UHGV virus genome: UHGV-1602873 | Source: a virus | DNA: 19,421 nt | Reading direction: 5' to 3' (one strand) | Shown: in pieces, positions 1 to 19,378 of the stretch | Layout of the letters: every line of letters begins with the position of its first letter | Position numbering within the stretch: the stretch's first letter is position 1 | The notes under the pieces: generated by a model | Seen by the model: only the letters and a program-made list of their open reading frames with translations | The model's database searches: none | What the model was told of the DNA's origin: nothing | Made by a program: the position numbers and the translations under genes

Positions 1-15
1 TTTGTTGACTTCCAT
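1..15 (-). CDS. Start of a Nu1-like terminase small subunit gene (first 5 codons only; continues off the window)
   Basis: Reverse complement of 1-15 is ATGGAAGTCAACAAA (MEVNK), identical to the first codons of the Nu1 gene at 15379; upstream context (16-30) also matches the Nu1 ribosome-binding region of the second copy. Confidence 0.45.
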
Positions 16-240
16 TGTTCATTCCACGGACAAAAACAGAGAAAGGAAACGACAGAGGCCAAAATGCCCGTTTTCAGCGCCTGTCATTTCCTTTCTTTTC
101 AGGGGGTATTTTAAATAAAAACATAAAGTTACGGCGAAGAAGAACGGAAATGCCTTAAACCGGAAAATTTCCATAAATAGAGAAAAACTGCGCGCCTGAC
201 GCCCCGTAGCCTGTCAGATCGCCGGAAAGGACCCGCCAGC
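16..240. other. cos site of the island (cos2): cosB-like region, cosN-equivalent 12-mer at 193-204, cosQ-like flank 205-238
   Basis: Position-for-position alignable without gaps to 15380-15600 (the lambda-type cos); the 12-nt cohesive-end equivalent reads cgcctgacgccc versus aggtcgccgccc in cos1 (5 of 12 differ); flanking R-site-like blocks mostly conserved. Confidence 0.6.
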
Positions 241-260
241 CAGAGCGGGCCCTAATTTCA

Positions 261-644
261 TCAACCAATCAGCTTATAGCGACCATCCCGTGCATTGCGG
301 CGTACACGCTCAATCTTGAGGCATAGCGCCGCATCTGGCTTTTTTGGGACAGGTACGCGGCAATATTCAGAAGCGCGAGGAATATTATTTATCCAGTCGA
401 TCACTTCACTTAAATACCAGGCCTTACGCCCTTCCGTAACCTGCACACGCTCCGGGAACTCTCCACTAGCCTCAAGGTTTAGCAGTGTACGCCGACTCAG
501 GGTTGTAATTTCCATCACCTGATTCATATCAACAAGGCGCTCGCTTAAACACATTTTGTCAGCGATAGCTTTTAATTCCTCTACAGCTGGATTCGGGTAC
601 ATCATTTCGGCAATTGGCTTAAGGTCATTGTAATCATTCTGCAT
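261..644 (-). CDS. AlpA/Xis-family winged-helix DNA-binding protein (127 aa)
   Basis: Segment ITTLSRRTLLNLEASGEFPERVQVTEGRKAWYLSEVIDWI matches the AlpA/excisionase-like fold signature (GxFP, W..SEV..WI); strong SD (AAGGGGGA) 5 nt upstream; start follows the upstream stop codon within ~15 nt. Confidence 0.7.
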   Translation of the reverse strand: MQNDYNDLKPIAEMMYPNPAVEELKAIADKMCLSERLVDMNQVMEITTLSRRTLLNLEASGEFPERVQVTEGRKAWYLSEVIDWINNIPRASEYCRVPVPKKPDAALCLKIERVRRNARDGRYKLIG

Positions 645-655
645 TGTATCCCCCT

Positions 656-997
656 TTACACACGAGCCAGCGGCTGAACAGAAATACCTGAGCCAACAAA
701 TGCTGCAATCTTTACTGACAGTTCTTTTACAGACTCAGGCCAGTTCAGAGCATCAACATTTAAGACACCTGTCTTATAGACCTGAGCCTGTGTTTTTTTC
801 GCGGTGTCGATTTGTACAGCGGAAACATAAACCGCTTTACCTACGCTCGAACCATCCCATACCACCAGTGCACCTGTTGCATCTTCCTGCATCAGTGGCG
901 TAAATGCAGGAATTACCCCTTTATTAGCTGAAAATATCCCCAGCGTAGTCACCAGTGCTTCAGTGCCAGCCATGAGTTCAGTGTAATGAGTAGCCAT
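656..997 (-). CDS. Head decoration protein, lambda gpD family (113 aa)
   Basis: C-terminal half aligns with lambda D (LVVWDGSSVGKAV..YKTG..WPES..AAFVGSGISV versus [31 protein letters not shown]); divergent from the gpD at 9491-9823. Confidence 0.8.
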   Translation of the reverse strand: MATHYTELMAGTEALVTTLGIFSANKGVIPAFTPLMQEDATGALVVWDGSSVGKAVYVSAVQIDTAKKTQAQVYKTGVLNVDALNWPESVKELSVKIAAFVGSGISVQPLARV

Positions 998-1006
998 TGC
1001 TCCCCC

Positions 1007-2047
1007 TTAGCCAATGCGAACGGTAACAAAACGATTGATGCGGGCCGGTATTGGCTGTGGTGCTGAATGTGTCTGCACATATTCAATAGCCGGATCACCA
1101 GGCACAATATAGTTTTTCGGTGCAAGTTCGGCTTTAGTCAGCCCCATTCGGATTAGCTCCGGATCCTGAATACCGCCATAGGCGACAATCCCCTGAAGAG
1201 CCGTATTGCCAAGCACCATCAAATCAGGATCAAGGAAATGTTTTTCTGTTCCGTCCTCGTCGGTATAACGCCCGCTGTAAACAACAATCGCAACATCGCC
1301 CATATACCCTTTAAAACTCACCGAATCACCAAGGTCTTTAAGGGCCGTTTCCAGTTCGGAATTAGAACCACGACGGGTATCCAAAGCCTCTTTTATCGCT
1401 CTGAATGAACGGTATTTCTTCCATACATTACCACCCATAATGATGATATTAGTGACGCCCTCACTAAATTCTGCGTAGCTCTCAATATCATCATTTGGAT
1501 CAAAAGTTTCTTTATCCTTACCTGACCACTCAGTACCGCCAGACTGAGTGATGATATTTTGTGGTTTTATATTCCAGTCCAGCTCATAACGTTCAATACC
1601 ATCGCCCTCAATGATATTTTTCCCCGTTGTGATTGCCTGAACAGCAAGCCATTCAATACGTGCACGAATAGCTTTAGCCTGATTTACAATCGCCTGTTTA
1701 ACTTTAATATTACGCGCCCCAAAAGCATTGTATTGCTCAGGTGACACACCAGCAGGGCGCACAGCTAACTTATTTGGATCAATGCTGCTTTTCGGCTTCA
1801 TATAGCCTGGACGAATTGTTTTTGATTCGTACCCTTCGTCACGTGAAACTTTACTACCCACCATAGGAGAACAAAACGCTGCAATTGGGATATTTGGATC
1901 GTCGATTGTATCAAGAATAATATCGCGCGATTCAAACATTACCGAGCGAGTAAAAAACAAACTGGTAAACAACGCATTTAGTTGTTTTTGTACATCTACA
2001 GCATTAACTACCTGTACAAGCTGAGTAGGCGAATATAAATCAACCAT
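1007..2047 (-). CDS. Major capsid protein, lambda gpE family (346 aa from MVDLY start)
   Basis: Full-length homology to lambda E, strongest centrally (ITQSGGTEWS, DTRRGSNSELETA, GDVAIVVYSG, VLGNT); AAGAGGA SD upstream of ATG at 2047; the 71-codon N-terminal extension of the raw ORF is not used. Confidence 0.9.
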   Translation of the reverse strand: MVDLYSPTQLVQVVNAVDVQKQLNALFTSLFFTRSVMFESRDIILDTIDDPNIPIAAFCSPMVGSKVSRDEGYESKTIRPGYMKPKSSIDPNKLAVRPAGVSPEQYNAFGARNIKVKQAIVNQAKAIRARIEWLAVQAITTGKNIIEGDGIERYELDWNIKPQNIITQSGGTEWSGKDKETFDPNDDIESYAEFSEGVTNIIIMGGNVWKKYRSFRAIKEALDTRRGSNSELETALKDLGDSVSFKGYMGDVAIVVYSGRYTDEDGTEKHFLDPDLMVLGNTALQGIVAYGGIQDPELIRMGLTKAELAPKNYIVPGDPAIEYVQTHSAPQPIPARINRFVTVRIG

Positions 2048-2221
2048 ACGCATCCTCTTTGCATTCATTAAAAATAATTGTGGATATATGCTATCACCGA
2101 TATTTGTCATGCGAACACATGCAACCGAGTGCAATGTTGTATAAAGTTTTGGGGTGACAACTTCAGTGCGGACAATTAGTGTTAATATCTTCACTCCCTT
2201 TGGTCGGGATTTATGTAGCAT

Positions 2222-2252
2222 GCCGGAAAATTTATTTTTTCCGGCTTTTTTT
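2222..2252 (+). terminator. Intrinsic terminator oriented on the plus strand
   Basis: Perfect stem gccggaaaa/ttttccggc (2222-2245) with 6-nt loop, followed by ttttttt (2246-2252). The U-tract follows the hairpin only in the plus direction, antisense to the flanking genes. Confidence 0.6.
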
Positions 2253-2263
2253 ATTGGCAATAT

Positions 2264-2713
2264 TTAAAACGGGATATCATCTCCCCATTGCTCATTATCT
2301 CCCTCTGGTGGCTGGCTTCCTTGCTGATCTGCCTGTTGTTTTGCTCTGTTCAGTGCGTCAGTAGCCTGCCCCTGTTGGCCTTTTTTGCCGCCCGGTCGCA
2401 CCGATCGCGCACTGATTACGCTGTCTGCGATAACCTGCCAGCCCTGCCGCGTTTCGCCGTTCTGTCCAGTCCACTGGCTCATCTGCATGTTACCCGCCAC
2501 GCTCAGGAGTTCGCCTTTGTGATGCTTTGCCAGCGCGTCGGCTTGTCTGCCAAACGCCAGGACAGATAACCACAACGTCGCCAGACCGTCATCCGACTGA
2601 CTGCAGGGCAGTGATACCGCCATACGCGCCAGCGTCATGGGGGTGCCCTTGCTGGTCTGTTTTGTCTGCGGGTCGTCCACCAACCGCCCGTAAACTGATA
2701 TTTGCGCCGTCAT
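2264..2713 (-). CDS. ssb: Single-stranded DNA-binding protein (SSB)
   Basis: OB-fold-like N-terminus (ISVYGRLVDDPQ..., LSVLAFGRQADALAKHHKGELLSVAGNMQMSQWTGQNGETR), Gly/Gln-rich linker and C-terminal acidic tip ending DDIPF, as in E. coli SSB. Confidence 0.8.
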   Translation of the reverse strand: MTAQISVYGRLVDDPQTKQTSKGTPMTLARMAVSLPCSQSDDGLATLWLSVLAFGRQADALAKHHKGELLSVAGNMQMSQWTGQNGETRQGWQVIADSVISARSVRPGGKKGQQGQATDALNRAKQQADQQGSQPPEGDNEQWGDDIPF

Positions 2714-2967
2714 GCTGCCTGCTCTCCGGACTTAATATTGATTGTTGTCACTTCCTCCGCTTCAGCAATCTCCCGTTCGGTCAGCGTGGCAAAGTTTGCA
2801 GCCGCCGTTGTCATGAATGCGCTTATCAGTTCGGGATGTGCTTTCGCGTATCCTTCCCCGGCGTTGCGGTCTATTGCCTTAATCGCCACCCTTAGCCAGT
2901 GTTCAGCCATATCAAGGGCGCGGTAATGTGGCTTTATATGTTTGTTCAGTTTTCCTGATGTGTGCAT
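2710..2967 (-). CDS. Hypothetical small protein (85 aa; possible internal start giving ~66 aa)
   Basis: ORF overlapping the ssb start by 4 nt (coupled); no recognisable motif. Confidence 0.45.
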   Translation of the reverse strand: MHTSGKLNKHIKPHYRALDMAEHWLRVAIKAIDRNAGEGYAKAHPELISAFMTTAAANFATLTEREIAEAEEVTTINIKSGEQAA

Positions 2968-3012
2968 TTTTATTTTTACCCCCTCGTTTAAAAAGTTTTT
3001 TGTGCACCACCA

Positions 3013-3245
3013 CCTTGTCTACCTTGTCTACCTGATTAGTTATCAGGCCAGTAATGGCGCGGGTTTCAGGGAGGTAGACAGCCCCAAATAGCTGTCTACC
3101 TCATCTCTACCCGTCTCCTTACCTGTCTACAAAAATGGGTAGATAAGGTAGATAACAGGTAGACAGTGAAAAATAGTTATCTACCTGCATTAATACATTG
3201 AAATAAAAGTATTTTCTTTCAGTCAGGTAGACAAGGTAGATAACC
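3013..3245. repeat. Iteron array, putative replication origin
   Basis: At least 10 copies of GGTAGA(C/T)A(A/G) in both orientations: tandem ttgtctacc x2 (3015-3032); 12-bp perfect inverted repeat gaggtagacagc/gctgtctacctc (3071-3082, 3091-3102); ggtagataa x2 (3138-3155); caggtagacag (3157-3167); caggtagacaaggtagataacc (3224-3245); AT-rich stretch 3189-3222. Lies immediately 3' of the primase-helicase gene. Confidence 0.65.
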
Positions 3246-3256
3246 ATTGCCATTTT

Positions 3257-5008
3257 TTATAAAAACGCATCGCAATCATCAGTAGTCGTTGCGTTGGTCT
3301 GCGTGACTCCCTTAACTTTTCGCGTAATATATTCATATCCGTAAACTTTCGCCGCTGACCTCATAGCCTTTCCGAACTCATTCACGCTCAAACATTTCCC
3401 CTTTCCTGTGTATGCCATGAAGGCCATATAGACACGGTAAAGGCTGTTTCTGGTCGTGTACTTCACGGTGTCACCACCACCGCCCATCATTAGCCCACGA
3501 GCTTCCTCCAGAAACTCCAGCGCCGCGCAAAGCTCAACAACCGGATCCGTTTGCTGCTTTATTGCCAGAGCTTCATCACCGTCACGCTGTTCCAGTAATA
3601 AAGCCCGTGCCTTTTCAGGGTCAGCAAAATTAGCCAGCAAGCGGCGGATAATTACGGGGATTTCTGCCGCTATCTTTTCCGGTAATTCCTTGTCTTTTTC
3701 GTCCTCCCTTACAATGTTGTCGAACCGGAAAATCACCCGACGGCGTGACACACCTCCGGCCCGTTCGGTAAAGATCATCGGGTCGTTATTGGTTGCCAGT
3801 ACCACCGCTCTTATTATCGTCGTGAATCGCTTCTCATATTTCGGGTTAATTTCAACGGGATCGCCTCCCGTGATTTTCTTGATGCCCGTGCCTTCCCCCG
3901 TATATTTCGGCTGATCGGCAAGGACGATAAGACGACTCCCGACAACCTGCGCGCGCCCTCCTGCATCATCGAGTGATGTCATCTCCGCGCTTACGGTGTT
4001 CTGTTTGCCAGCAAGCAGGGTGGCAATATGGGTAAATGTACTCTTACCGCTTCCCCCGTCTCCGGTGGCCTCAATGAACATCTGCCAGTCGTAGCGGTTC
4101 GCCATAATCATGTATAACGCGGCACATATACGCATCATCTTGCGCGGGTCTTTTCTTGCAGCATGTTCAAGCCATTTATGGAAATTTGGCGCATTATCGC
4201 GGATGTTTTCCCCTGCTACTGGTGGCGTGTACTCAATGCCATTGTGCGTGGTGCTCCAGTGCTCCGGCGAGTGCGGAGAAAATTCCCCCGTTTTCAGGTT
4301 AAGCACACCATTAGTGAACGGTAGCAAATCACCGGACGGCTCCCCCATGGGGTCGGCAATAACTTTTAACGCTTCCACGGCGTTATTGATTACACGTTTG
4401 CTGAACGTGGCCCTGTGCTCTGAATAGATCGCCACCATTTCGCGGCTCAGCTCCATTGTGCTGACCGGACACCATACCCCGCCGCGCCATACGTGGACGA
4501 TTTCACTTTCTGCATGAACACACACACCATCAAAGCGATCGGCAAGTAGTTGTGCACGTTCACTGTCTGCCATCTGTGAAAGTTGCGCCTTTTGCTTCGT
4601 CGGAAGATTAAGCACCAGACTTTCCCCACGCTCGCATTCCTCTTTGAGTCGCGGCAACTGCTCGGATAAATCCACTGGGCTGGTGTCAGTAATCCCCGCG
4701 TATTCGTGTACGGTCTTCACTCCAGCCACAGCCAGTAACGTAACAATCTGCGTCATGCTGTGCTCTGTGATATGTCCTGCGCGGTAAACACGCACACACT
4801 GACGATCTTCATCAATGATCCGGTAATCGGTGATATTTTTCAGTTGCTCATCAGCCAGCACGACAGGCGGCACATCGTCAGCGGCAATATGTTTACCCGC
4901 CCATTCCCGCCACTCTTTCGCATGGCTCCACGCATCACTACCTGCAAAGATGATTACCTCTGTCAGTCTGTCGCGTGGCTGTTTTTTTAAGTTCGGTGCC
5001 AGTTTCAT
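3257..5008 (-). CDS. Replication initiation primase/helicase (phage/plasmid primase, D5/P4-alpha NTPase family), 583 aa
   Basis: Walker A GDGGSGKST, downstream hydrophobic-D motif (LIVLAD); size and position after int-alpA as in P4-like and PICI elements; SD AGGGG upstream of ATG at 5008. Confidence 0.85.
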   Translation of the reverse strand: MKLAPNLKKQPRDRLTEVIIFAGSDAWSHAKEWREWAGKHIAADDVPPVVLADEQLKNITDYRIIDEDRQCVRVYRAGHITEHSMTQIVTLLAVAGVKTVHEYAGITDTSPVDLSEQLPRLKEECERGESLVLNLPTKQKAQLSQMADSERAQLLADRFDGVCVHAESEIVHVWRGGVWCPVSTMELSREMVAIYSEHRATFSKRVINNAVEALKVIADPMGEPSGDLLPFTNGVLNLKTGEFSPHSPEHWSTTHNGIEYTPPVAGENIRDNAPNFHKWLEHAARKDPRKMMRICAALYMIMANRYDWQMFIEATGDGGSGKSTFTHIATLLAGKQNTVSAEMTSLDDAGGRAQVVGSRLIVLADQPKYTGEGTGIKKITGGDPVEINPKYEKRFTTIIRAVVLATNNDPMIFTERAGGVSRRRVIFRFDNIVREDEKDKELPEKIAAEIPVIIRRLLANFADPEKARALLLEQRDGDEALAIKQQTDPVVELCAALEFLEEARGLMMGGGGDTVKYTTRNSLYRVYMAFMAYTGKGKCLSVNEFGKAMRSAAKVYGYEYITRKVKGVTQTNATTTDDCDAFL

Positions 5009-5304
5009 TTTTTGCCCCTGAATGCGTTAATCATGCTTTTCATTTTCTGGATGTTTCCCCGCGCTTTTTCCCTGCTGATGGGCTTACTGCGGGGTGCGGC
5101 ATATACCAGGGAAAAATCACGCCGGAACTGATAAACAGGCATCACGCAGTCATAGCTATACCCCTCACGGCGGTAAGTGATGCGCCGTTCTGCCACGCCT
5201 TTAATCGTTACCGTGCCGCCGTATTTATCGCGGTAAATATCGCCGTTCATAAATTCAGGCCGAGCGGGGCCGCTGGCAATAAAGCCAGAATTTTTCATTT
5301 CCAT
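5005..5304 (-). CDS. Hypothetical protein (99 aa), translationally coupled to the primase
   Basis: GAGGAA SD; stop overlaps the primase ATG (ATGA overlap). Confidence 0.55.
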   Translation of the reverse strand: MEMKNSGFIASGPARPEFMNGDIYRDKYGGTVTIKGVAERRITYRREGYSYDCVMPVYQFRRDFSLVYAAPRSKPISREKARGNIQKMKSMINAFRGKK

Positions 5305-5321
5305 ATTATTTATTCCTCGAC

Positions 5322-5543
5322 TTAACTCGACTTATTTGATAGCAGGGCACTATTTATTGCGTCATTGAGTTTTTCTGCTGATTCATCAATAAGTGACAAC
5401 AGGCCATAAGCAATATTTGCATCTTCATTGTCATTTATGCAATCAAGCCACATATTTAATATTGCTTTTGCTGAATTATTTAAAGTTAATGAACTTTCTG
5501 CACATGCTAACAATTTAAAAAAGACTTCCCGTTCTGTATTCAT
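5322..5543 (-). CDS. Hypothetical small protein (73 aa)
   Basis: AT-rich ORF; start abuts the stop of the upstream gene. Confidence 0.45.
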   Translation of the reverse strand: MNTEREVFFKLLACAESSLTLNNSAKAILNMWLDCINDNEDANIAYGLLSLIDESAEKLNDAINSALLSNKSS

Positions 5544-5735
5544 TTAATCCCCCACCAGCTTACTTTCTTCCTCAATGAGGAAACTAGCGACACTTCCCGA
5601 AAGGCGCGCCAGTAGGCTCGCCAGCGCGGATATATCAGCATCTGTAATTTTGTTCGGATATACCTCAAGAAGGCGGCAAATAATTTCTGTCTGGTGCGCA
5701 CGTTCAGCGGCTTCGTGTAATGTGATTTCCTGCAT
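5544..5735 (-). CDS. Hypothetical small protein (63 aa)
   Basis: Start codon overlaps the stop of the upstream ORF by 1 nt. Confidence 0.45.
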   Translation of the reverse strand: MQEITLHEAAERAHQTEIICRLLEVYPNKITDADISALASLLARLSGSVASFLIEEESKLVGD

Positions 5736-5920
5736 TAATGCACCTCTTTTAATTCATACACTGCTGAAATAATGACTTGTGATAAGCCATATTCTGATGA
5801 TTCGCTTCTCACCGCAGCAATAGCCGTCTGAACATTAACAGCCTTCACATTCTGAGCGATACCAATTGTGTGGCCTATTGGGTTAACAGCTCGGGCAAAT
5901 ACACGGAAGGTTTTAAGCAT
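5735..5920 (-). CDS. Hypothetical small protein (61 aa), first gene of the operon leading to the primase
   Basis: GGGAG SD 6 nt upstream of ATG; competes with a plus-strand ORF starting at 5919, so the call is tentative. Confidence 0.4.
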   Translation of the reverse strand: MLKTFRVFARAVNPIGHTIGIAQNVKAVNVQTAIAAVRSESSEYGLSQVIISAVYELKEVH

Positions 5921-6201
5921 GACTCACTCCCTGGCGGATTTTTGCAGCGAATACAGCAACACAACCGGACGGGCAACGGCTACGCGCTTCGCGTTCCGTC
6001 CAGGCGGTTACGTGGATGATTTGAGATTCTCCGGCACTCAGTGCCAGAAAACGCCACACAAAGGCCGTTTGTGTGTGTACAAGGTGTGGTATATGATTTA
6101 CAGCAACCATAACGGCTCCTAGTTTACGTTGTTGGTTAGACGCCCCGTATGTGTTCCCAGCACTGCGGGGCGTTGCTCTTTGTATTTCAACAATCCTTTC
6201 G

Positions 6202-6279
6202 GTGTGTTTCATGTTATGAGCGCATGAAACACACGTCAAGGCTTTTTGTATTTCTTTTTTTGTGTATACTGAAACACAC
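6202..6279. promoter_or_regulatory. Operator-like repeats overlapping a leftward sigma70-like promoter in a divergent control region
   Basis: 12-bp perfect inverted repeat gtgtgtttcatg/catgaaacacac (6202-6213, 6223-6234) plus a third copy gaaacacac (6271-6279). On the minus strand, TTGACG (6234-6239), 17-bp spacer, TAACAT (6211-6216) form a promoter whose -10 and spacer sit inside the repeats. Confidence 0.5.
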
Positions 6280-6300
6280 CGATGATTAGGAGTTTCAGAA

Positions 6301-6606
6301 ATGGCAACGGCTAACAAAAACGCAAAATCACAACTGACAACTGTCAGAGTCCCACTAGATGTTATGCAAGGGATGGAATCCGTTAAGCTGGACGGTGAAA
6401 GCAATGCCGGATTTATCGTAACCGCCATGCGCGGTGAAATCGCCCGCCGCCAGGCAGAAGGAAGCGGAGAAAATCCCCTCGTGTCTTCACTGGATGCCTT
6501 AGCTAAGGTCGAACAAATCGGTATCAAGGCAGCGGAGGAAATCGGGCAACTCGTAGCCGTCGCTCGTGAAGAACTCCAGCGGCGTAAAGCCAAAGAATCT
6601 GAATAA
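6301..6606 (+). CDS. Hypothetical protein, candidate regulator (101 aa)
   Basis: AGGAG SD 8 nt upstream; charged helical C-terminus; transcribed divergently from the small-gene/primase operon, next to the operator repeats. Function not recognised. Confidence 0.6.
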   Translation: MATANKNAKSQLTTVRVPLDVMQGMESVKLDGESNAGFIVTAMRGEIARRQAEGSGENPLVSSLDALAKVEQIGIKAAEEIGQLVAVAREELQRRKAKESE

Positions 6607-6956
6607 TTAGTATCAGCGCCGTGATGTGAGTAACTACGGCGCATTGCTATGTAAATACTGGCAATAAACAGAAAAGGTAGTTCTACTCCGAATAATTTTA
6701 TCTGACACTACTCCTGAACTAACATGCGCTTATCTTACAGGATATAAATATAAATCCATAAAATCACGATTAAATAAAGTCGCTCCAAACATAAACCACA
6801 CCCAACGCTTAACAAGATAGCAACAAACAGGTAAATAACTTGCAGAAATATTTATCGCAAGGATTATCATTATTAATGACAAATCACTTTACCAAGTCAT
6901 TCCCCTCTCTTATCATAAAGAGAAAGTAATAAATAAGTTAAGGGAGTTAGAATGCT

Positions 6957-7493
6957 ATGAATCTAAAAAAAATAGCCACAAACACAAAAAACAAGATAAC
7001 AGAAACATTTAATAAACTTATATTAGAGGCATCTAAAACCCCCACACAAGATGAAATTAAAATACTTGAGAGAAGGAGTAAGAAGTTTAATTACTCCTTT
7101 TTCTCATACGCAGTCACAGGAGCTATAATAGTTTTTTGCTCTCAACCATTAATTAAATACGCAAACCCAATACTTATTTTATTGAGTGGTCTGTTACTGT
7201 CTATCATCATTATCATTCTCAGAATGATTTATATTTCACAAGCGAATGCATCATGGACAACCAAAAAACGCTCACATGTACTAGTTCATTTTCTTTCTGC
7301 ATGTTTCATAGCATCAACATTGACGTTGCTATATCAGGCTTACGATAATAACATCACACACAAATTGTACTGTAAAAATATACAACAACTTATTGAAAAA
7401 AGGATAGAGACAGAAAAAAACATCAGCATATTCAGTGGGATGCAATGCACCCCGGTATATGATTACTCTTTATTTGGATTTAATCTCTTATAA
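6957..7493 (+). CDS. Small membrane protein (178 aa, about three predicted transmembrane segments) in an AT-rich cargo segment
   Basis: Hydrophobic stretches FFSYAVTGAIIVFCSQPLI, ILILLSGLLLSIIIIILRMIYI, VLVHFLSACFIASTLTLLY; AGGGAG SD; Lys/Asn/Ile-rich codon usage unlike its neighbours. Confidence 0.6.
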   Translation: MNLKKIATNTKNKITETFNKLILEASKTPTQDEIKILERRSKKFNYSFFSYAVTGAIIVFCSQPLIKYANPILILLSGLLLSIIIIILRMIYISQANASWTTKKRSHVLVHFLSACFIASTLTLLYQAYDNNITHKLYCKNIQQLIEKRIETEKNISIFSGMQCTPVYDYSLFGFNLL

Positions 7494-7502
7494 AGAATGT
7501 TA

Positions 7503-7536
7503 TTACTGATTTGAGTACAAATTCTCAAATCAGTAA
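7503..7536. terminator. Hairpin between convergent genes (membrane protein and alpA), likely bidirectional terminator
   Basis: Perfect 13-bp inverted repeat ttactgatttgag/ctcaaatcagtaa with 8-nt loop, flanked by T/A-rich sequence on both sides. Confidence 0.55.
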
Positions 7537-7562
7537 TTCATAATATTTTATTCTGAGATAAT

Positions 7563-7799
7563 TTAAACTACCCACTCACCTCGAATCCATGCCTGCACTT
7601 CTGAAAGACGATATGCAACAGCAGTGGAACCAATCTTGATCCGCTTAGGAAATTTTCCTTCCTTCTCCAGCTTCCAGCGTGTGCTGTTCGCAAGAGTGGT
7701 TAGCTCCCGACATTCTTTCTCACGGATCATTCGGTCAATGTTAGGAATGTACTCCAGACCCTTTTTATCAACAATTGCCATTTTTTTCATGTTAACCAA
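7563..7799 (-). CDS. alpA: AlpA-family transcriptional regulator/excisionase-like protein (78 aa)
   Basis: Signature LEYIPNIDRMIREKECRELTTLANSTRWKLEKEGKFPKRIKIGSTAVAYRLSEVQAWI; overlaps the integrase stop by 8 nt. Confidence 0.85.
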   Translation of the reverse strand: MVNMKKMAIVDKKGLEYIPNIDRMIREKECRELTTLANSTRWKLEKEGKFPKRIKIGSTAVAYRLSEVQAWIRGEWVV

Positions 7800-9027
7800 C
7801 CTTTTGTTTGAGGATTGTCACTTTTGAATCAGCACCTGCGATGCTATTGAGATATGTAGTCCAGAGTTCCAGAGCATCCAGTTTTTTAGCCATAAACTTA
7901 CTCCGGTTGTAAACACCTGCCACGCCAGGTAGCGCATGGCCTAACAGTTGTTCTACTACATAAAATTCAACACCGAGATCACTTAGATGAGTAGATAGCG
8001 TTCTTCTAAGGTCGTGTAGTGACCATTGTTTTTCATGGCCCAAACGTTTACCGATTTTCCCCCCAATCTTGCTTACGCTTTCTCTAATTCGCAGACTTCC
8101 CAGCACATAACCAGTATGTTTTGTCTCTTCGTGAACATCCGTTACCCACTGTCGTAGAATTTCAGGTACTGGTCTGACGATTTCAACACCAGTTTTTGAG
8201 TGATCTTTTGGTACAGTCCAAACCCAACTTTCGAGATCCCATTCGCTCCATTCTGATAATCGGGCTTCACTCATTCGACATCCAAATACTGTACAAAGCA
8301 CAAACATTTTTCGCGTGTATTCAGACATTAGTTTTAAATCAGGCTCGACAAAAATTGCCTTCCAGAGCTGGCCGAGTTCGGCTTCATCCAGAACCCGATC
8401 CCGCTTACCTGCAATCTGCCCCACATCACTCATGCGCAAATCCTTTAAAGCATCACACGTCGCGTACTGGCGTACCCGACAAAAACGAAGAGCTAATTTA
8501 GTGTCAGAAAAAACATACGCCGCCATAACTGGTGCATTACGTTTAATTCGGTCAAAACAGTCCAGCCATTCATATAGGTGAGTGTCATTTACGGGCAAAT
8601 GACCGATATAGGGAAAGATATGCTTTCGAAATCTGCCAAGCGTTACAGCATGAGTTTTACGACGCACCTTACAGTAATTTTCATACCAGTAATTTAGTGC
8701 ATCCTCCACTGTAACCGGCTTTAAGCGTTCTTCAGCCTGAATCTTAATCTGGATACGCGGATCACGTTTGTCAGCCAACCAACCACGGCACTCGTCGCGC
8801 TTTTCCCTTGCCTGTTTGAGTGACATATCAGGATATTTACCCAACGTTAGCCAGACCGGAGCAGCCCGGCCACCTGCTAACCTGTAGAAGAAAACAAAGC
8901 TCACAGCCCCTTTAGTACTCACACGAATAGAAAGCCCCTTTCCATCAGCAATGGTGATCTGCTTTTCTCTGGGTTTCCCCAGATATCCTTTAAGCGCTTT
9001 GTCGCTCAGTTTGTTCTCGCCAGCCAT
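7792..9027 (-). CDS. int: Tyrosine site-specific integrase, P4 family (start chosen at MAGENK; raw ORF extends to 9078)
   Basis: N-terminal arm-binding-like region (KALKGYLGKPREKQITIADGKGLSIRVS...), catalytic box HDLRRT and C-terminal tyrosine in GVAGVYNRS. Confidence 0.9.
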   Translation of the reverse strand: MAGENKLSDKALKGYLGKPREKQITIADGKGLSIRVSTKGAVSFVFFYRLAGGRAAPVWLTLGKYPDMSLKQAREKRDECRGWLADKRDPRIQIKIQAEERLKPVTVEDALNYWYENYCKVRRKTHAVTLGRFRKHIFPYIGHLPVNDTHLYEWLDCFDRIKRNAPVMAAYVFSDTKLALRFCRVRQYATCDALKDLRMSDVGQIAGKRDRVLDEAELGQLWKAIFVEPDLKLMSEYTRKMFVLCTVFGCRMSEARLSEWSEWDLESWVWTVPKDHSKTGVEIVRPVPEILRQWVTDVHEETKHTGYVLGSLRIRESVSKIGGKIGKRLGHEKQWSLHDLRRTLSTHLSDLGVEFYVVEQLLGHALPGVAGVYNRSKFMAKKLDALELWTTYLNSIAGADSKVTILKQKVG

Positions 9028-9159
9028 TTTTAGCCCCAAAAAGCAATACAAGCTGCAATACAGAGATGATTGCAACACACAGATAACGAGGAAAATTCAG
9101 TGAAAGCACCAGATAAACTTATTCTTTATTATCAAAAGATTAAGTGTAAAAACCAGCAA

Positions 9160-9435
9160 CTACACGAAAGCCTCAGAAAGCCATGCTAAGTGCTTGGGTT
9201 TGACATATCCCGGCGTAAATTCAGAGGTGGAGCCGCCACGGGAACGGATAACCTCACCGGAAACAATCGGCGAAACGTACAGCGCCATGTTTACCAGTCC
9301 CGGAATTTGTGAGAGATAGACTTTCTCCGTGGTGAAGGGATAGCTCTCACGGAAAAAGAGACGCAGAAACAGCGGATCAAACTTAAATTTCTGCTCATTT
9401 GCCGCCAGCAGCTGGGCGGTTGTGTACATCGACAT
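9160..9435 (-). pseudogene. E: Truncated lambda-type major capsid gene E (first ~82 codons, then 9 unrelated codons and a stop)
   Basis: MSMYTTAQLLAANEQKFKFDPLFLRLFF...TPGYVKPKH matches the lambda gpE N-terminus as recalled; the frame then reads LAWLSEAFV-stop at ~9190-9160, next to the integrase gene. Confidence 0.85.
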
Positions 9436-9440
9436 AAAAA

Positions 9441-9480
9441 AATCCCGTAAAAAAAGCCGCACAGGCGGCCTTTAGTGATG
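9441..9480 (-). terminator. GC hairpin plus U-tract in the D-E intergenic region (attenuator/terminator-like)
   Basis: On the minus strand: GCCGCC-TGT-GCGGC followed by TTTTTTT between the gpD stop and the E start. Confidence 0.35.
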
Positions 9481-9490
9481 AAGGGTAAGG

Positions 9491-9823
9491 TTAAACGATG
9501 CTGATTGCCGTTCCGGCAAACGCGGTCCGTTTTTTCGTCTCGTCGCTGGCAGCCTCCGGCCAGAGCACATCCTCATAACGGAACGTGCCGGACTTGTAGA
9601 ACGTCAGCGTGGTGCTGGTCTGGTCAGCATCAACCGCCAGAATGCCAACGGCAGTACCGTCGGTGGTGCCATCCCACGCAACCAGCTTACGGGTGGAGGT
9701 GTCCAGCATCAGCGGGGTCATTGCAGGCGCTTTCGCACTCAATCCGCCGGGCGCGGTTGCCGTATGTGCCGGGTCACTGTTGCCCAGCGGCTGGTAATGG
9801 GTAAAGGTTTCTTTGCTCGTCAT
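9491..9823 (-). CDS. D: Head decoration protein gpD (110 aa)
   Basis: Near-identical to lambda D as recalled ([12 protein letters not shown]...GTAISIV). Confidence 0.9.
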
Positions 9824-9832
9824 AAACATCCC

Positions 9833-10438
9833 TTACACTGGTGTGTTCAGCAAATCGTTAACGGCATCAGATGCCGGGTTACCTGCAGCCAGTGGTGCCG
9901 GTGCCCCCTGCATCAGACGATCCAGCGCAGTGTCACTGCGCGCCTGTGCACTCTGTGGTGCAGCTGCCAGAATGCGGCGGGCCGTTTCCACGGTCATACC
10001 GGGGGTTTCGGCCAGCACACGTGCCTGTTCTTCTCGTCCGTGAGCTTCCTCACAGTTGAGGATCCCCATAATGCGGCTGTTTTCTGCCGCAACCGCAGCG
10101 GTGATCTGCGCGTTCACGTCCGGCTGCGCCGCGCTGGCGTTTTCGCCCTCCGTCGCTTGCACCACGTCAGTAACGTCAGCCTGCGAAGCAGTGGTTGAAA
10201 CAGTTGTTGATTGAGTCTCTTTGGTCATTCGCCCTCCTGAGAGACGGGATTTACGTGCATCCAGTGCATCACGCATAACGGTGATCGCATCGGTGCTGTT
10301 GACAAGTTCATCAGCCAGTCCGGCATCAATGGCCTCCTGACCGCTGTACACTGCAGCCTCGGTATCCAGCACAGCCTGCACGGACAGGCCGGTATATGCC
10401 GACACCTTCTGCGCAAACATCCGGCGGGTTGCATCCAT
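9833..10438 (-). CDS. nu3: Capsid scaffolding protein Nu3 (in frame with and sharing the C-terminus of gpC)
   Basis: Internal ATG (MDATRRMFAQ...) giving 201 aa, the same nested arrangement as lambda Nu3 within C. Confidence 0.7.
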   Translation of the reverse strand: MDATRRMFAQKVSAYTGLSVQAVLDTEAAVYSGQEAIDAGLADELVNSTDAITVMRDALDARKSRLSGGRMTKETQSTTVSTTASQADVTDVVQATEGENASAAQPDVNAQITAAVAAENSRIMGILNCEEAHGREEQARVLAETPGMTVETARRILAAAPQSAQARSDTALDRLMQGAPAPLAAGNPASDAVNDLLNTPV

Positions 10439-11132
10439 CCGGGACTGCAGTGTCTCCCGGACATCACCCGGTAGATGGCTGTAGGGGTTGCCATCCACCT
10501 TATGGCTGCCGCTGTAAATCAGCGTGATTTCCACGCCCTGTTTCTCCAGCGCAGCGCCGTAATTACTGTGAGCCATCATGACGCCGATGGAGCCTGTCCG
10601 GGCGGTCTGCGTGACCAGACGCCGGGAGGCGGCGCTGGCAAGCAGCTGACCTGCACTGCAGTTCATGTCGTTGGCCAGCGCCCATACCGGCTTTATGTCA
10701 CGCACACGGGCGATGATGTCAGCACAGTCAAATGCTCCCGCCACCATCCCGCCCGGTGTGTCCATATCGAGCAGAATGCCGTCCACCATCGGATCGCTGG
10801 CAGCCTGTTGCAGACGGGCGATAATGCCGTTGTAACCGGTCATCCCCGAATACGGCTGCAGCGCCCGCGTCCGGCTGACCAGCGTGCCGGACACCGGCAG
10901 CACGGCGATGCCGTTCATGACCTGATAACTGCGGGCCTGTCGTGGTCCGTCATCATCAACGGATAACGCCAGCGCCGCGGGTGCCTCTCCGGCAGTCAGG
11001 CTGTCGCCGGACACCGCATCCGTCAGGCGGCTGATCCCAAGCTGGCCTGCAAGCGCACAAAAGAAAACCCGCGCATAGGCGGGTTCAAGCATCAGCGGCT
11101 CATTAAAGGCCATACTGGCAATATGCGGGAGA

Positions 11133-11152
<20 letters not shown>
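9833..11152 (-). CDS. C: Head protease/scaffold gpC (439 aa, GTG start)
   Basis: Starts VTAELRNLPHIASMAFNEPLMLEPAYARVFF with GTG at 11150-11152 preceded by GGAGGAG; the raw ORF's upstream extension is rejected; overlaps the end of B as in lambda. Confidence 0.9.
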
Positions 11153-14833
<3,681 letters not shown>

Positions 14834-14859
<26 letters not shown>

Positions 14860-15379
14860 TCAGCAACCCCGGTATCAGTTCATCCAGCGCGGCTGCTTTG
14901 TTCATGGCTTTGATAATATCCCGTTTCAGGAAATCAACATGTCGGTTTTCCAGTTCCGGAAAACGCCGCTGCACCGACAGGGGGATCCCGTCGAGAATAC
15001 TGGCAATTTCACCTGCGATCCGCGACAACACGAAAGTACAGAATGCGGTTTCCACCACTTCAGCGGAGTCTCTGGCATTCTTCAGTTCCTGTGCGTCGGC
15101 CTGCGCACGCGTAAGTCGATGGCGTTCGTACTCAATAGTCCCTGGCTGGAGATCTGCCTCGCTGACCTGCCGCAGTTCTTCAACCTCCCGGCGCAGCTTT
15201 TCGTTCTCAATTTCAGCATCCCTTTCGGCATACCATTTTATGACGGCGGCAGAGTCATAAAGCACCTCATTACCCTTGCCACCGCCTCGCAGAACGGGCA
15301 TTCCCTGTTCCTGCCAGTTCTGAATGGTACGGATACTCGCACCGAAAATGTCAGCCAGCTGCTTTTTGTTGACTTCCAT
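14834..15379 (-). CDS. nu1: Terminase small subunit Nu1 (181 aa)
   Basis: MEVNKKQLADIFGASIRTIQNWQEQGMPVLRGGGKGNEVLYDSAAVIKWYAERD... matches lambda Nu1. Confidence 0.95.
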
Positions 15380-15600
15380 TGTTCATTCCACGGACAAAAA
15401 CAGAGAAAGGAAACGACAGAGGCCAAAAAGCTCGCTTTCAGCACCTGTCGCTTCCTTTCTTTTCAGAGGGTATTTTAAATAAAAACATTAAGTTATGACG
15501 AAGAAGAACGGAAACGCCTTAAACCGGAAAATTTTCATAAATAGCGAAAACCCGCGAGGTCGCCGCCCCGTAACCTGTCGGATCGCCGGAAAGGACCCGC
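15380..15600. other. Lambda-type cos site (cos1): cosB, cosN with the 12-nt cohesive-end sequence at 15557-15568, cosQ-side flank
   Basis: Reverse complement of 15544-15578 reads ACAGGTTACG-GGGCGGCGACCT-CGCGGGTTTTCGC, i.e. lambda right end, cohesive end and left end joined. Confidence 0.85.
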
Positions 15601-15767
15601 AAAATGATAATAATTATCATCTGCATGTCACAACGTGCATCTACGCCATCAAACCACGTCAAATAATCAATTATGACGCAGGTATCATATTAATTGATCT
15701 GCATCAACTTAACGTAAAAACAACTTCAGACAATACAAATCAGCGACACTGAATACGGGACAACCTC

Positions 15768-16001
15768 ATGTCAACGAAGAACAGAACCCGCAGAACAACA
15801 ACCCGCAACATCCGCTTTCCTAACCAAATGATTGAACAAATTAACATCGCTCTTGAGCAAAAAGGGTCCGGGAATTTCTCAGCCTGGGTCATTGAAGCCT
15901 GCCGCCGGAGACTGTGCTCAGAAAAAAGAGTTTCTCCTGAAGCAAACAAAGAAAAGAGTGACATTACTGAATTGCTCAGAAAACAGATCAGACCAGATTG
16001 A
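15768..16001 (+). CDS. Small basic protein, possible ribbon-helix-helix DNA-binding protein (77 aa)
   Basis: Arg-rich N-terminus followed by NIRFPNQMIEQINIALEQKG (RHH-like pattern); no strong SD, so tentative. Confidence 0.45.
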   Translation: MSTKNRTRRTTTRNIRFPNQMIEQINIALEQKGSGNFSAWVIEACRRRLCSEKRVSPEANKEKSDITELLRKQIRPD

Positions 16002-16772: not shown

Positions 16773-17297
16773 TCAATTAATCAGCAGTTCAGGCTGTGTC
16801 ACCTGCAAGATGTATTCATGCTCGACAGCCAGGACACGCTTCTCTTTCTTCCGTTCGTTCATTAACCGACTGCCGATCGTACCTTTCAGCTTTGAGCGTG
16901 TTTCTTTGATGGCGTAGCGGTGCTGCATTTCTTCGCCAATTGCCATGCGGCGGCTCAGTTGTTCTGCCATCCAGTTGAATGCTGCGATATAGCTCTCCTT
17001 GATTGCCGCAGCAGCTTTCCCGGTGAACCCCATCACAACCATGATCCAGCCATCTTTCGTCAGGCTGTACATCGGGCGAACCTTGCCCTGCTCATCGATA
17101 TAATCAGCCGACGCAAAATTGCGTTGGCTAAACTCACGCGAGCAATCAGCCTTAACCTGCTCGATTTTCCTGAGAACATCACCGTGTCGCTTGCCGAAGT
17201 ACTTGGCAATTTTTCTGGATGTGGTAACGACCTCTCCGTTTTTGGCTTGCACCATTTCTCGGAAGTCGAAGGCTGGAATAACTGAATGATTATTCAT
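16773..17297 (-). CDS. Rha-family phage regulatory protein (174 aa from MNNHSV start)
   Basis: N-terminal MNNHSVIPAFDFREMVQAKNGEVVTTSRKIAKYFGKRHGDVLRKIEQV is a typical Rha/ORF6-N domain; the raw ORF's 81-codon upstream extension is rejected. Confidence 0.7.
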   Translation of the reverse strand: MNNHSVIPAFDFREMVQAKNGEVVTTSRKIAKYFGKRHGDVLRKIEQVKADCSREFSQRNFASADYIDEQGKVRPMYSLTKDGWIMVVMGFTGKAAAAIKESYIAAFNWMAEQLSRRMAIGEEMQHRYAIKETRSKLKGTIGSRLMNERKKEKRVLAVEHEYILQVTQPELLIN

Positions 17298-17435
17298 AGC
17301 GTCTTTACCTTTTAGAAAGTGAGCCTGTCTCACAGAAAAGCCGCCCGAGAGAGGTCGCCACCTATAACGGCATTTCTCAGGCTCGCTTACTGAAAGGCTC
17401 TCGTTAATATGCGCGTGAGATGCGCTGTGAAATTC

Positions 17436-17468
17436 AGATATAAAAAGCCCCGCGAATGCGAGGCTAAA
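17436..17468 (-). terminator. Intrinsic terminator downstream of the lysis cassette
   Basis: Minus-strand RNA GCCUCGC-AUUC-GCGGGGC (7-bp stem with one G-U pair) followed by UUUUUAUAU. Confidence 0.55.
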
Positions 17469-17639
17469 TCCTGGTATTTGTAATGAACTGGCTCTTATCT
17501 CAACGCAGCCCCTTACTGCGCGCCAGATGCTCAATATCAAGCATCAGCAATGAGATGTTTAATCTGGATTTACTCCAGAAGTGATCACCACCCTGTCTAC
17601 AGAGCCAGATGTGAAGGATGATGAGTAAAATTATCGCTA

Positions 17640-18107
17640 TCATCGAAGGCATTGCGTCCTAATGTATTCCTGAAGCGTTCTCAGTGCTGTTTGGTCGCGG
17701 ATAATTCCGTCCCGGATATCGAGAACGTTTCGTCCAGCAACTGGAGAGAGTTCGACGGTGGCATCATTGCCCATGCCGGAGGCGCTGGAGGTTTCGGCAG
17801 AGGATGGCACAGGGCATTTTCCTTTGACGAGCACCCTGCCACCATTATCAAGCTTCCGCAGAAGAGCATCATTTTCAGCTTTCGCATCAGCTAACTCCTT
17901 CGTGTATTTTGCATCGAGCGCAGCAACATCACGCTGACGCATCTGCATGTCAGTAATTGCCGCGTTCGCCAGCTTCAGTTCTCTGACATTTTTGTCGCGC
18001 TGGGCTTTGTAGGTAATGGCGTTATCACGGTAATGATTAACAGCCCATGACAGGCAGACGATGATGCAGATAACCAGAGCGGAGATAATCGCGGTTACTC
18101 TGTTCAT
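17640..18107 (-). CDS. Rz: Rz i-spanin
   Basis: N-terminal TM anchor and coiled coil ([40 protein letters not shown]...) matching lambda Rz; overlaps the endolysin stop. Confidence 0.8.
17681..17887 (-). CDS. Rz1: Rz1 o-spanin lipoprotein, embedded in the +1 frame of Rz
   Basis: Signal peptide with lipobox VAGC and Pro-rich mature part ([16 protein letters not shown]), fully nested inside Rz. Confidence 0.7.
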
Positions 18108-18601
18108 TGCTGACCCCACAAACAGATTTCACGCTCAATCTCACGACGAGTCATGAGACCTTTCCATTGCTTACCGCCAGCATATGTCCAGCGACGTAGC
18201 TGATCACATGCGCCTTTGATATCGCCCTGGTTTATTTTGCGAAGAAGCGTCGATGTTCTGAAATTGCCAGCACCCACGTTGTAAACGAATGAGTAAAGAG
18301 CGCCGCGCATTGTTTCCGGTATATCGACTTTGATGTACGGGTTAATTTGTCTGGCGACCGTGGCAAGGTCTTTATTCAGGAGGGCTTTGCATTCTGCTTT
18401 GGTATACGTTTTACCGAGCATGATGTCTTTTCCTGTATGCCCGTGACATACAGTCCATACACCAACAATATCTTTGTATGGTATGTAGCTGACACCTTCC
18501 AGACCATCGTTACCACTTGGGCCAGTAATTAACACTGATGCTATAGCAATTGCTCCGCCACCAATAGCAGCAGCAACGGCTTTTCGTAATGATGGAGGCA
18601 T
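18104..18601 (-). CDS. R: SAR endolysin, T4-lysozyme-like fold (phage 21 R type), 165 aa
   Basis: N-terminal Gly/Ala-rich weakly hydrophobic SAR segment ([20 protein letters not shown]) followed by catalytic E-x8-D-x5-T ([17 protein letters not shown]). Confidence 0.9.
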
Positions 18602-18816
18602 TATTCACCTCTCGCAGCCTTGCGCTTATCTTCTTTAATCTTGAAATAAAGGTTTGTCAGGTACGTCAGCAGGCCAAATACCAGGCTACCCAGCACACCT
18701 ATTGCTGCCCACTGTGAGGGCGTGACTTTATCGAGCAGCTGTAAAAACCAGTAACCGGCACTACCTGCTGAGGTGCCATAGGCGACACCCGTTGTTAACT
18801 TATCCATGGATTTCAT
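18601..18816 (-). CDS. S: Pinholin/antiholin (phage 21 S type), 71 aa from MKSMDKL
   Basis: Two TM segments and a dual-start motif (MKSMDKL...); stop overlaps the endolysin start. Confidence 0.8.
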
Positions 18817-18883
18817 AACCCCACCTCGCAGATGCGGGTGCTGTGTAATGGAAATAAAAAGGCCACCTGACGTGGCCACCAGA

Positions 18884-19378
18884 TTATTTCCCCACCAGCT
18901 CGTTTATCTCTTTCACTGTCTGGTTAAACCGCTCTGACTCAAGCTCAACACCTAAGGCCCGACGCCCCAGCGCCATTGCTGCTTTTATTGTGGAACCGGA
19001 TCCCATAAAAAAATCAGCAACCAGATCACCAGGTCGACTACTGGCATTGATTATTTGCCTGAGCATATCCGCCGGTTTCTCACACGGATGTTTACCCGGG
19101 TAGAACTGAACGGGTTTATGCATCCAGACATCGGTATAAGGCACGGAGACTGATACGGAGAAATAGCGCCGGAGAGATTTAAACTCATCCAGCAATTCAG
19201 AATATTTGCGATTCAGTGAATCATAAGACGCCACCAGCTGGTGGTGTGGTTGTTCCAGTTGTTGTTCCTGAAACTTCTCTGCCGCTATACGGGAAAACAG
19301 TGCCTGTAACTTCCGATAGTCAGCCTCATTCGGCAACTGCCACTGACTGGCACCAAACCAGTGGGATGTAGTGGTCAA
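18884..19378 (-). CDS. Phage DNA N6-adenine methyltransferase-like protein (164 aa; apparent TTG start)
   Basis: HPCEKP motif and AdoMet-binding FxGxG (DFFMGSGST) in beta-class order; in-frame stop 7 codons upstream of the TTG start; immediately upstream of the holin. Confidence 0.55.

Follow-up and report, generated by a model that had tools for sequence, protein, structure and literature searches.

What kind of element combines an integrase and a satellite-type replication core with a phage capsid gene, a decoration gene and a cos site? The question is raised by the 19,421-nt virus genome UHGV-1602873 (the whole of this stretch is hereafter called the window), positions 1-9190 of which a preliminary description had portrayed as a satellite island endowed with its own lambda-type capsid, decoration, and cos/Nu1 genes. 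Our analysis identifies this segment, with a probability of about 90%, as most of an 11.3-kb helper-embedded phage-inducible chromosomal island (HE-PICI) of the E:Phage_cap_E:80 group, specifically a mosaic variant of Eco567.11capE residing within gene E of a lambdoid prophage. The element is therefore already known: it is one more member of the HE-PICI 11capE type, with a swapped replication module.

Boundaries of the island within helper gene E

E. coli FDAARGOS_1268, which matches the window best out of 5,426 complete E. coli genomes, served as the reference for the complete locus; identity to the window is 99.9% over positions 1-9500 and 99.0% over 1-15930. No complete genome in this collection matches the whole window; the best whole-window matches reach 97-99% identity at 84-91% coverage. 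In FDAARGOS_1268, the island measures 11,314 bp between the att cores (17877-29190). The boundary between most of the island (window 1-9190) and the helper on its right is exact at 9190/9191. Lambdoid phage records match positions 9191-9500 at 99-100% but share the cos site alone with 1-9190, and the GC content changes across the boundary from ~0.58 on the helper side to ~0.45 on the island side. Phage matches and the FDAARGOS_1268 annotation assign positions 9191-9435 (minus strand) to the N-terminal 82 codons of the helper major capsid gene E, which is split by the island. The insertion point is codon ~80 of this lambda-type gene, and satellite and helper lie on the same strand.

On the other side of the island, FDAARGOS_1268 carries attR, a 3′ fragment of E, FI, FII, and the genes of an entire lambda-type tail. 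When the 5′ fragment of E (9435-9191) was joined in silico to positions 17876-17096 of that genome at the repeated core, the result was an open frame of 1026 nt that encodes a 341-aa E protein, the length annotated for lambda gpE in J02459.1. The exact break in the phage matches, the flanking of the island by the two E fragments, and the rejoined frame together indicate that the island is an insertion in the helper major capsid gene. This context was missing from the preliminary description, which had proposed to extend the sequence leftward and to take a contiguous tail module as evidence of an ordinary temperate phage. Annotation of FDAARGOS_1268 and Pfam/PHROG scans revealed no terminase, portal, protease, tail, or lysis genes between the att sites. 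The tail genes found to the left are the helper's own and lie beyond attR and the E fragment, so that taking them as a refutation would misfire. The attL junction was found in 173 of the 5,426 complete genomes and the whole island in 74.

Integration zone and attachment sites

Island genes and sites lie on the minus strand unless stated otherwise. The tyrosine integrase (7792-9027; Pfam Arm-DNA-bind_3 and Phage_integrase) belongs to the HE-PICI clade and has 411 aa from the ATG at 9027, an alternative GTG start at 9078 overrunning the arm-site motif. It is identical to the Eco567.11capE integrase at 409 of 411 residues. The excisionase/regulator AlpA (7563-7790; Pfam E = 2.8e-15) corresponds to RefSeq WP_000737991.1, the same protein as in the prototype. 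Both genes had been recognized before as an overlapping pair; the overlap did not hold, since alpA adjoins int without it, unless the alpA start is the TTG at 7799.

The attL core AACCCAAGCA (9191-9200) falls in E codons 79-82. The attR core AGCCGAAGCA lies at 17877-17886 of FDAARGOS_1268, to the left of window position 1, where the attR of the source strain is expected to include …CATGTAGCCGAAGCATGAGGTG…. The flanks of both sites match the supplementary alignments for E_Phage_cap_E_80 in PMC10111431, and both cores are listed there. As to how two different cores came about, either strand exchange was limited to their shared AAGCA end or the 5′ part of helper E was later swapped with another lambdoid allele. 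The P′ arm contains the doubled motif tcTGTATTGCagctTGTATTGCtt (9041-9064), starting at +133 from the core center. In the reconstructed attP, the doubled TGTATTGC arm motif has its upstream pair ending at -81 and its downstream pair beginning at +133 relative to the core center; for the doubled tgTGTATTGCantgTGTATTGCa motif, the published distances from the attP center are 81 +/- 2 bp on the upstream side and 132 +/- 2 bp on the downstream side (PMC10111431), and the doubled TGTATTGC motif was reported for HE-PICI attP sites only (PMC10111431).

HE-PICIs are organized in four zones (Integration, Bro, Replication, and Late). The integration, replication, and late zones of the island are clear by profiles, and the segment 6301-7493, between alpA and the replication genes, occupies the position of the Bro zone. 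It encodes a YlcI/YnfO-family protein (6301-6606, plus strand; RefSeq annotation) and, within a pocket of 0.34-0.36 GC, a predicted multi-pass membrane protein of 178 aa (6957-7493, plus strand). The latter, on the strand opposite to the rest of the island, is kept in the prototype (WP_001049527/8). A consensus scan for promoters and terminators gave promoter-like sites no more often than chance predicts (17 versus 17.0 expected).

Satellite capsid and decoration genes

Pfam profiles bore out the head genes reported in the preliminary description. The gpE-family major capsid protein (1007-2047; 346 aa) aligns with Phage_cap_E over positions 4-327 of 329 (E = 1.1e-41), and its gene is intact, with no sign of inactivation. 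It is followed by the gpD-family head-decoration protein (656-997; 113 aa; Pfam HDPD, E = 4.4e-15) and, as the last gene before cos, by a second AlpA-family winged-helix protein of 127 aa (261-644; Pfam Phage_AlpA, E = 7.6e-9; phrog_2790, E = 1.1e-49), with AlpA 8c3t as its best solved structure (E = 2e-9). We considered this 127-aa helix-turn-helix (HTH) protein as a candidate Rpp and rejected it: it is AlpA-family and unrelated to the proteins flanking cos in EcCICFT073, a PICI of E. coli CFT073.

Island E shares 55% identity with c1499 of EcCICFT073 versus 42% with helper E, and island D shares 54% with c1500 versus 38% with helper D. Against 50,697 phage records, the top identity of island E was 42.3%. 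Both proteins are thus nearer to EcCICFT073 than to the helper or any phage, and by these sequence comparisons the E/D pair is a PICI-borne lineage rather than a recent helper copy. The same values dispose of the idea that the island capsid gene is a recent "backup" copy of helper E. The E-D-HTH module is present at >= 80% coverage in 365 complete genomes, including chromosomal PICIs at tRNA-Pro and next to abgR (abgR/smrA). It has been suggested that the satellite E/D pair supplies capsid protein while helper E is still interrupted (PMC10111431).

The island cos and its cohesive end

The island cos (16-240), described before as complete, proved to be so. Beginning 32 bp upstream of the nick, it extends over cosN and an entire lambda-type cosB to the ribosome-binding region of Nu1. 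It is ~90% identical to the helper cos (15380-15600) and to lambdoid phage cos sites, an identity that takes in cosN, the whole of cosB, and the Nu1 start; the cos sites of phages PhiR46_1 and Kati were also aligned. By lambda coordinates, the stretch upstream of the cosN nick presumably includes cosQ. The alignments predict the 12-nt cohesive end GGGCGTCAGGCG (193-204).

Among IMG/VR contigs, 37 contain exactly this cosN. In 35 of them, D and HTH genes of the island type lie directly upstream, and 33 of these also carry a near-identical E gene, while the remaining two (L010 and L039) begin too near cos for the upstream genes to be judged. None of the 37 contigs displays a phage layout next to the exact island cosN. 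Borrowing of this cosN from a sequenced phage was also considered and discarded: the closest phage cos, that of PhiR46_1, is 93% identical, and its overhang GGGCGGAAGGCG is related but different.

The slot downstream of cos

The window ends 15 nt after cos, within the first five codons (MEVNK) of an open reading frame (ORF; 15-1, read ATGGAAGTCAACAAA). The preliminary description took these for the start of a Nu1-like gene. The start codons stood; the gene did not. In nine of nine relatives with the same GAAGTC-containing ATG (FDAARGOS_1268, E. coli NRG857c, and seven IMG/VR contigs), cos is followed by a 64-aa ORF (MEVNKDQLADILGKS...) that shares only ~13 residues with Nu1 and has no Pfam or PHROG match. 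Among relatives with the same cosN, the 15 nt of the window (GAAGTC) match this stub class and not the TerS class (GAAGCC). We therefore infer that the ORF of the source strain would be the 64-aa Nu1 stub and not a terminase small subunit.

The slot is hypervariable: besides the stub with its defense cargo, it can hold a full-length Nu1-like TerS, or part of cosB is replaced by unrelated sequence. The IMG/VR contigs L009, L013, L035, and L038 have the full-length Nu1-like TerS, 71% identical to helper Nu1, and a 180-aa gene annotated "terminase small subunit" follows cos in L005 and L006 (10257-10799 in both), two relatives that likewise share the late module of the island. In FDAARGOS_1268, the segment between the stub and attR (17887-20015) is cargo of 31% GC on the opposite strand. 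Its DUF262/GmrSD_N protein has NsnA as best PADLOC match (E = 2e-59), followed by PD-T4-2_A (E = 7e-39), and its RiboL-PSP HEPN protein matches PD-T4-2_B weakly (E = 2e-4); the two probably constitute a two-gene anti-phage system. The prototype carries the same RefSeq cargo proteins. No RppA homologue was detected in the island (best tblastn E = 2.2). That the island carries cos/Nu1 genes of its own in the sense of a packaging module is accordingly not upheld, there being no terminase, portal, or protease inside the att boundaries, and the stub being followed by defense cargo in the relatives.

Replication module

The D5-type primase, the coupled small genes upstream of it, and the iterons right after it were all confirmed. 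The primase-helicase (3257-5008; 583 aa) matches D5_N, DUF5906, and Pox_D5, as well as phrog_864 (E = 2.9e-161). A DUF4222 ORF (5005-5304; Pfam E = 9e-24) overlaps it by 4 nt and is preceded by small coupled ORFs at 5322-5543, 5544-5735, and 5735-5920 and, farthest upstream, by an ORF named Icd-like in RefSeq (5913-6110). The putative replication origin (3012-3248) has 10 GGTAGAYA iterons in both orientations, at 3016-3242, versus 0.55 expected in the whole window; none of 200 shuffles reached 10. This position agrees with that of PICI origins, described 3′ of pri (PMC6092414). Next come a phrog_1231 protein of 85 aa without a Pfam match (2710-2967; E = 3.2e-48) and, coupled to it, a single-stranded DNA-binding protein (SSB; 2264-2713; Pfam SSB, E = 2.1e-15).

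With respect to the prototype, the replication module is swapped: over 2921-6313, DNA identity is at most 74-78% and confined to short patches, whereas the flanks are 96-99% identical. The primases of IMG/VR relatives fall into three or more types, at about 100%, 78%, and 48% identity.

Relationship to known satellites

Eco567.11capE of E. coli NRG857c is the prototype of the E:Phage_cap_E:80 site group (Tommasini, Mageeney & Williams 2023, PMC10111431). The island joins a group with 201 instances on record. The two elements share integration site and orientation in a lambda-type E, att flanks, and the doubled arm motif, with DNA identities of 99.0% in the late zone and cargo and 96.5% in the integration zone. 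Gene order at the NRG857c locus is that of FDAARGOS_1268, and six RefSeq accessions are common to both islands (AlpA, decoration protein, 127-aa HTH protein, 64-aa stub, HEPN, and DUF262). They differ in the replication zone (~2921-6313), with a primase of 583 aa here versus 606 aa in the prototype; in the helper, DLP12-like lambdoid here versus an icd-site prophage in NRG857c; and in the attR core, AGCCGAAGCA here versus AACCCAAGCA in the prototype. Slightly beyond the published account, at the level of minor detail, are the satellite-specific cosN and the absence of Rpp.

EcCICFT073, the classical Gram-negative PICI (Fillol-Salom et al. 2018 and 2019), has the same layout, namely int-alpA, pri-ori, capsid (c1499), decoration (c1500), a small gene, and cos (PMC6092414), and likewise depends on lambdoid helpers and cos packaging (PMC6092414, PMC6739421). 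The E-D-cos order is consequently not the different architecture that had been proposed: it was already described in EcCICFT073 and occurs in chromosomal PICIs, and the island type is that of 11capE (PMC10111431). EcCICFT073 is chromosomal, next to phoQ, whereas the island lies within a prophage, and the genes before cos are unrelated (137-aa protein versus 127-aa HTH protein). Its cos combines a canonical cosN with the absence of a lambda-type cosB, and the gene behind it encodes RppA, a protein that retargets the helper TerS; the island, by contrast, has a variant cosN, a full lambda-type cosB, and no Rpp homologue. In the CFT073 genome (2490-2670), we observed that the EcCICFT073 cos diverges right after the ...GCTATTTATGA stretch following cosN, beyond which a 144-aa ORF occupies the rppA position.

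Of the features of Gram-negative PICIs, the island has int and alpA at one end, a pri-rep gene with the origin directly 3′ of it, and a length of 11,314 bp, in the range of about 10-15 kb, without tail or lysis genes; in place of an rpp gene after cos, as in EcCICFT073, there is the 64-aa Nu1 stub. The initial view of a satellite-type island with int, AlpA, primase, and iterons is supported, as are its gpE-family capsid gene, gpD-family decoration gene, and lambda-type cos. The island and P4 have in common integrases of one broad clade, primase-helicases of the D5 family, reliance on the cos packaging of a helper, and a length close to 11 kb. Unlike the island, P4 lacks a capsid gene; the island cos is lambda type rather than P2 type, and no CI/C4-type RNA is present; neither did Pfam or PHROGs report Sid, Psu, or Delta homologues for the 15 island proteins scanned. 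Capsid-forming PICIs (cf-PICIs; EcCIEDL933) borrow nothing but tails from the helper and themselves encode capsid, protease, portal, connectors, HNH, TerS, and TerL (Alqurainy et al., 10.1101/2022.09.08.507074). The island resembles them in its int-alpA-rep core and satellite-encoded major capsid protein, but capsid and decoration are the only members of the head/packaging set inside its att boundaries. It is not a cf-PICI, because it lacks protease, portal, connectors, HNH, and terminase subunits.

Points against the assignment and alternative explanations

Several observations weigh against identifying the locus as a functional HE-PICI of the 11capE type. The left 2.1 kb of the island is taken from relatives 99-99.9% identical to it and not from the source strain. 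The attL and attR cores mismatch at 2 of 10 positions. The proteins encoded at 6301-7493 have no Bro-N or other Pfam domain above cutoff, and an Rfam scan of positions 1-9500 (E <= 0.1) detected no P4 CI/C4/isrK-type immunity RNA. The island cosN GGGCGTCAGGCG differs from the helper/lambda GGGCGGCGACCT at 5 of 12 positions, and cutting by the helper terminase is therefore not assured. In EcCICFT073, deletion of the capsid or decoration gene left transfer and interference unchanged, although the helper there had an intact E (PMC6092414 / PMC6739421). Finally, no virions of either partner were detected for the prototype (PMC10111431), so that packaging and transfer are unproven across the group.

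The alternative that fares best, though we consider it improbable, is a dead insertion, inherited vertically in a cryptic prophage, with neither partner mobile. The failure to recover virions of the prototype and the truncated appearance of many helpers (PMC10111431) would fit it, as would the differing att cores. Yet no island ORF is disrupted, and precise excision has been demonstrated for an integrase 99.5% identical to that of the island. The island type occurs in helpers at different sites, icd in NRG857c versus the DLP12-like context here; its hosts come from humans, poultry, pigs, and seawater, which together with the swapped replication module points to ongoing mobility and recombination. 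The helper in FDAARGOS_1268, moreover, retains full replication, Q, lysis, head, and tail gene sets.

A new lambda-type cf-PICI, making its own heads and taking no more than tails from the helper, is very unlikely. Intact capsid and decoration proteins, diverged from those of every phage in the collection, and an own cos with a private cosN speak for it. However, of the cf-PICI head set only the capsid is present, plus the decoration protein, and EcCICFT073, with a homologous pair, is packaged as phage-sized DNA (PMC6092414), its capsid gene being dispensable. Least credible of all is an ordinary temperate lambdoid phage with a P4-type integrase, whose own morphogenetic module would start with the capsid, decoration, cos, and Nu1 genes and continue to the left: tail genes do occur there in the closest genome, and cos and the Nu1 start are lambda-like, but the tail genes, located beyond attR and the 3′ E fragment, complete the interrupted prophage, the Nu1 ORF stops as a 64-aa stub before AT-rich cargo (31% GC), the 11,314 bp between att cores contain no terminase, portal, protease, tail, or lysis genes, and alpA beside an inward-facing int is a PICI signature, not a prophage one (PMC10111431).

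The helper prophage

Beyond E, the window continues with the helper head/packaging run Nu1-A-W-B-C-D (9491-15379, minus strand), in which C/Nu3 is the protease-scaffold. Within it, on the same strand, lie D (9491-9823; ORF list and RefSeq annotation of FDAARGOS_1268), the B portal gene (11133-12734), A (12934-14859), and Nu1 (14834-15379; Phage_Nu1, E = 4.6e-100), followed by the helper cos (15380-15620, minus strand), with the canonical cosN GGGCGGCGACCT near 15560. The surrounding genes emrE, ybcK, rusA, and nohD define the context as DLP12-like. Lysis genes and a Rha-like gene are found at 16773-19378. FDAARGOS_1268, although 99% identical elsewhere, has a different sequence in the segment 15931-19421, between the Q/lysis region and cos. 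In the window, this segment contains a Rha-family regulator (16773-17300), the sole profile-tested domain of the segment, together with Rz/Rz1, a 165-aa endolysin (18104-18601), a small membrane protein in holin position (18601-18879), and a methylase-like ORF (18884-19378).

Proposed life cycle and implications

If the locus behaves as an 11capE-type HE-PICI, the lysogen would hold helper E split at codon ~80, as seen in the sequence, leaving the helper without a capsid protein of its own. Upon SOS induction of the helper, the composite would excise and replicate, with the satellite copied passively, as documented for the prototype by quantitative PCR and deep sequencing. Q-dependent late transcription of the helper may run through Nu1...D-E′ into int-alpA, a read-through hypothesized by the authors of PMC10111431. 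The next event would be excision of the satellite by Int and AlpA at the 10-bp core, which would give back the 341-aa E; it was recorded for the prototype and reproduced here in silico. In the prototype, mitomycin C treatment led first to the composite's excision and replication and later, at 2 h, to precise excision of the satellite (PMC10111431). By homology with the PICI pri-ori module, the circle probably replicates from the 10-iteron origin with its own primase-helicase and SSB. Because the satellite keeps an entire lambda-type cosB and lacks Rpp, it should be bound by helper Nu1 in unmodified form and be a direct competitor of the helper; the helper Nu1/A terminase would thus cut concatemers at the satellite cos, in direct competition for the enzyme and with no TerS retargeting. 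The helper would furnish portal, scaffold, and tails for the heads that take up the DNA; by analogy with EcCICFT073, a lambda-size head would fit four copies of the genome (45.3 kb).

A further, speculative proposal, which we regard as doubtful, is that in the embedded setting the diverged E/D pair and the private cosN act jointly as a partial private head-and-packaging identity. It is based on the 42%/38% identity of E/D to their helper counterparts, with no closer relative in any sequenced phage, and on the occurrence of this cosN only beside satellite E-D-HTH genes. If it were true, shells of satellite protein would assemble on helper portal and scaffold while helper E is split, the lack of complementarity between their cohesive ends would prevent satellite DNA and helper DNA from being joined, and the island would be intermediate between classical PICIs and cf-PICIs.

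The locus could serve as a test case for particle formation, for the role of the E/D pair, and for helper terminase cutting at a variant cosN. The helper-embedded satellite, as published in 2023 (PMC10111431), is a parasite of a virus that holds the capsid gene of that virus hostage and frees it only on excision.

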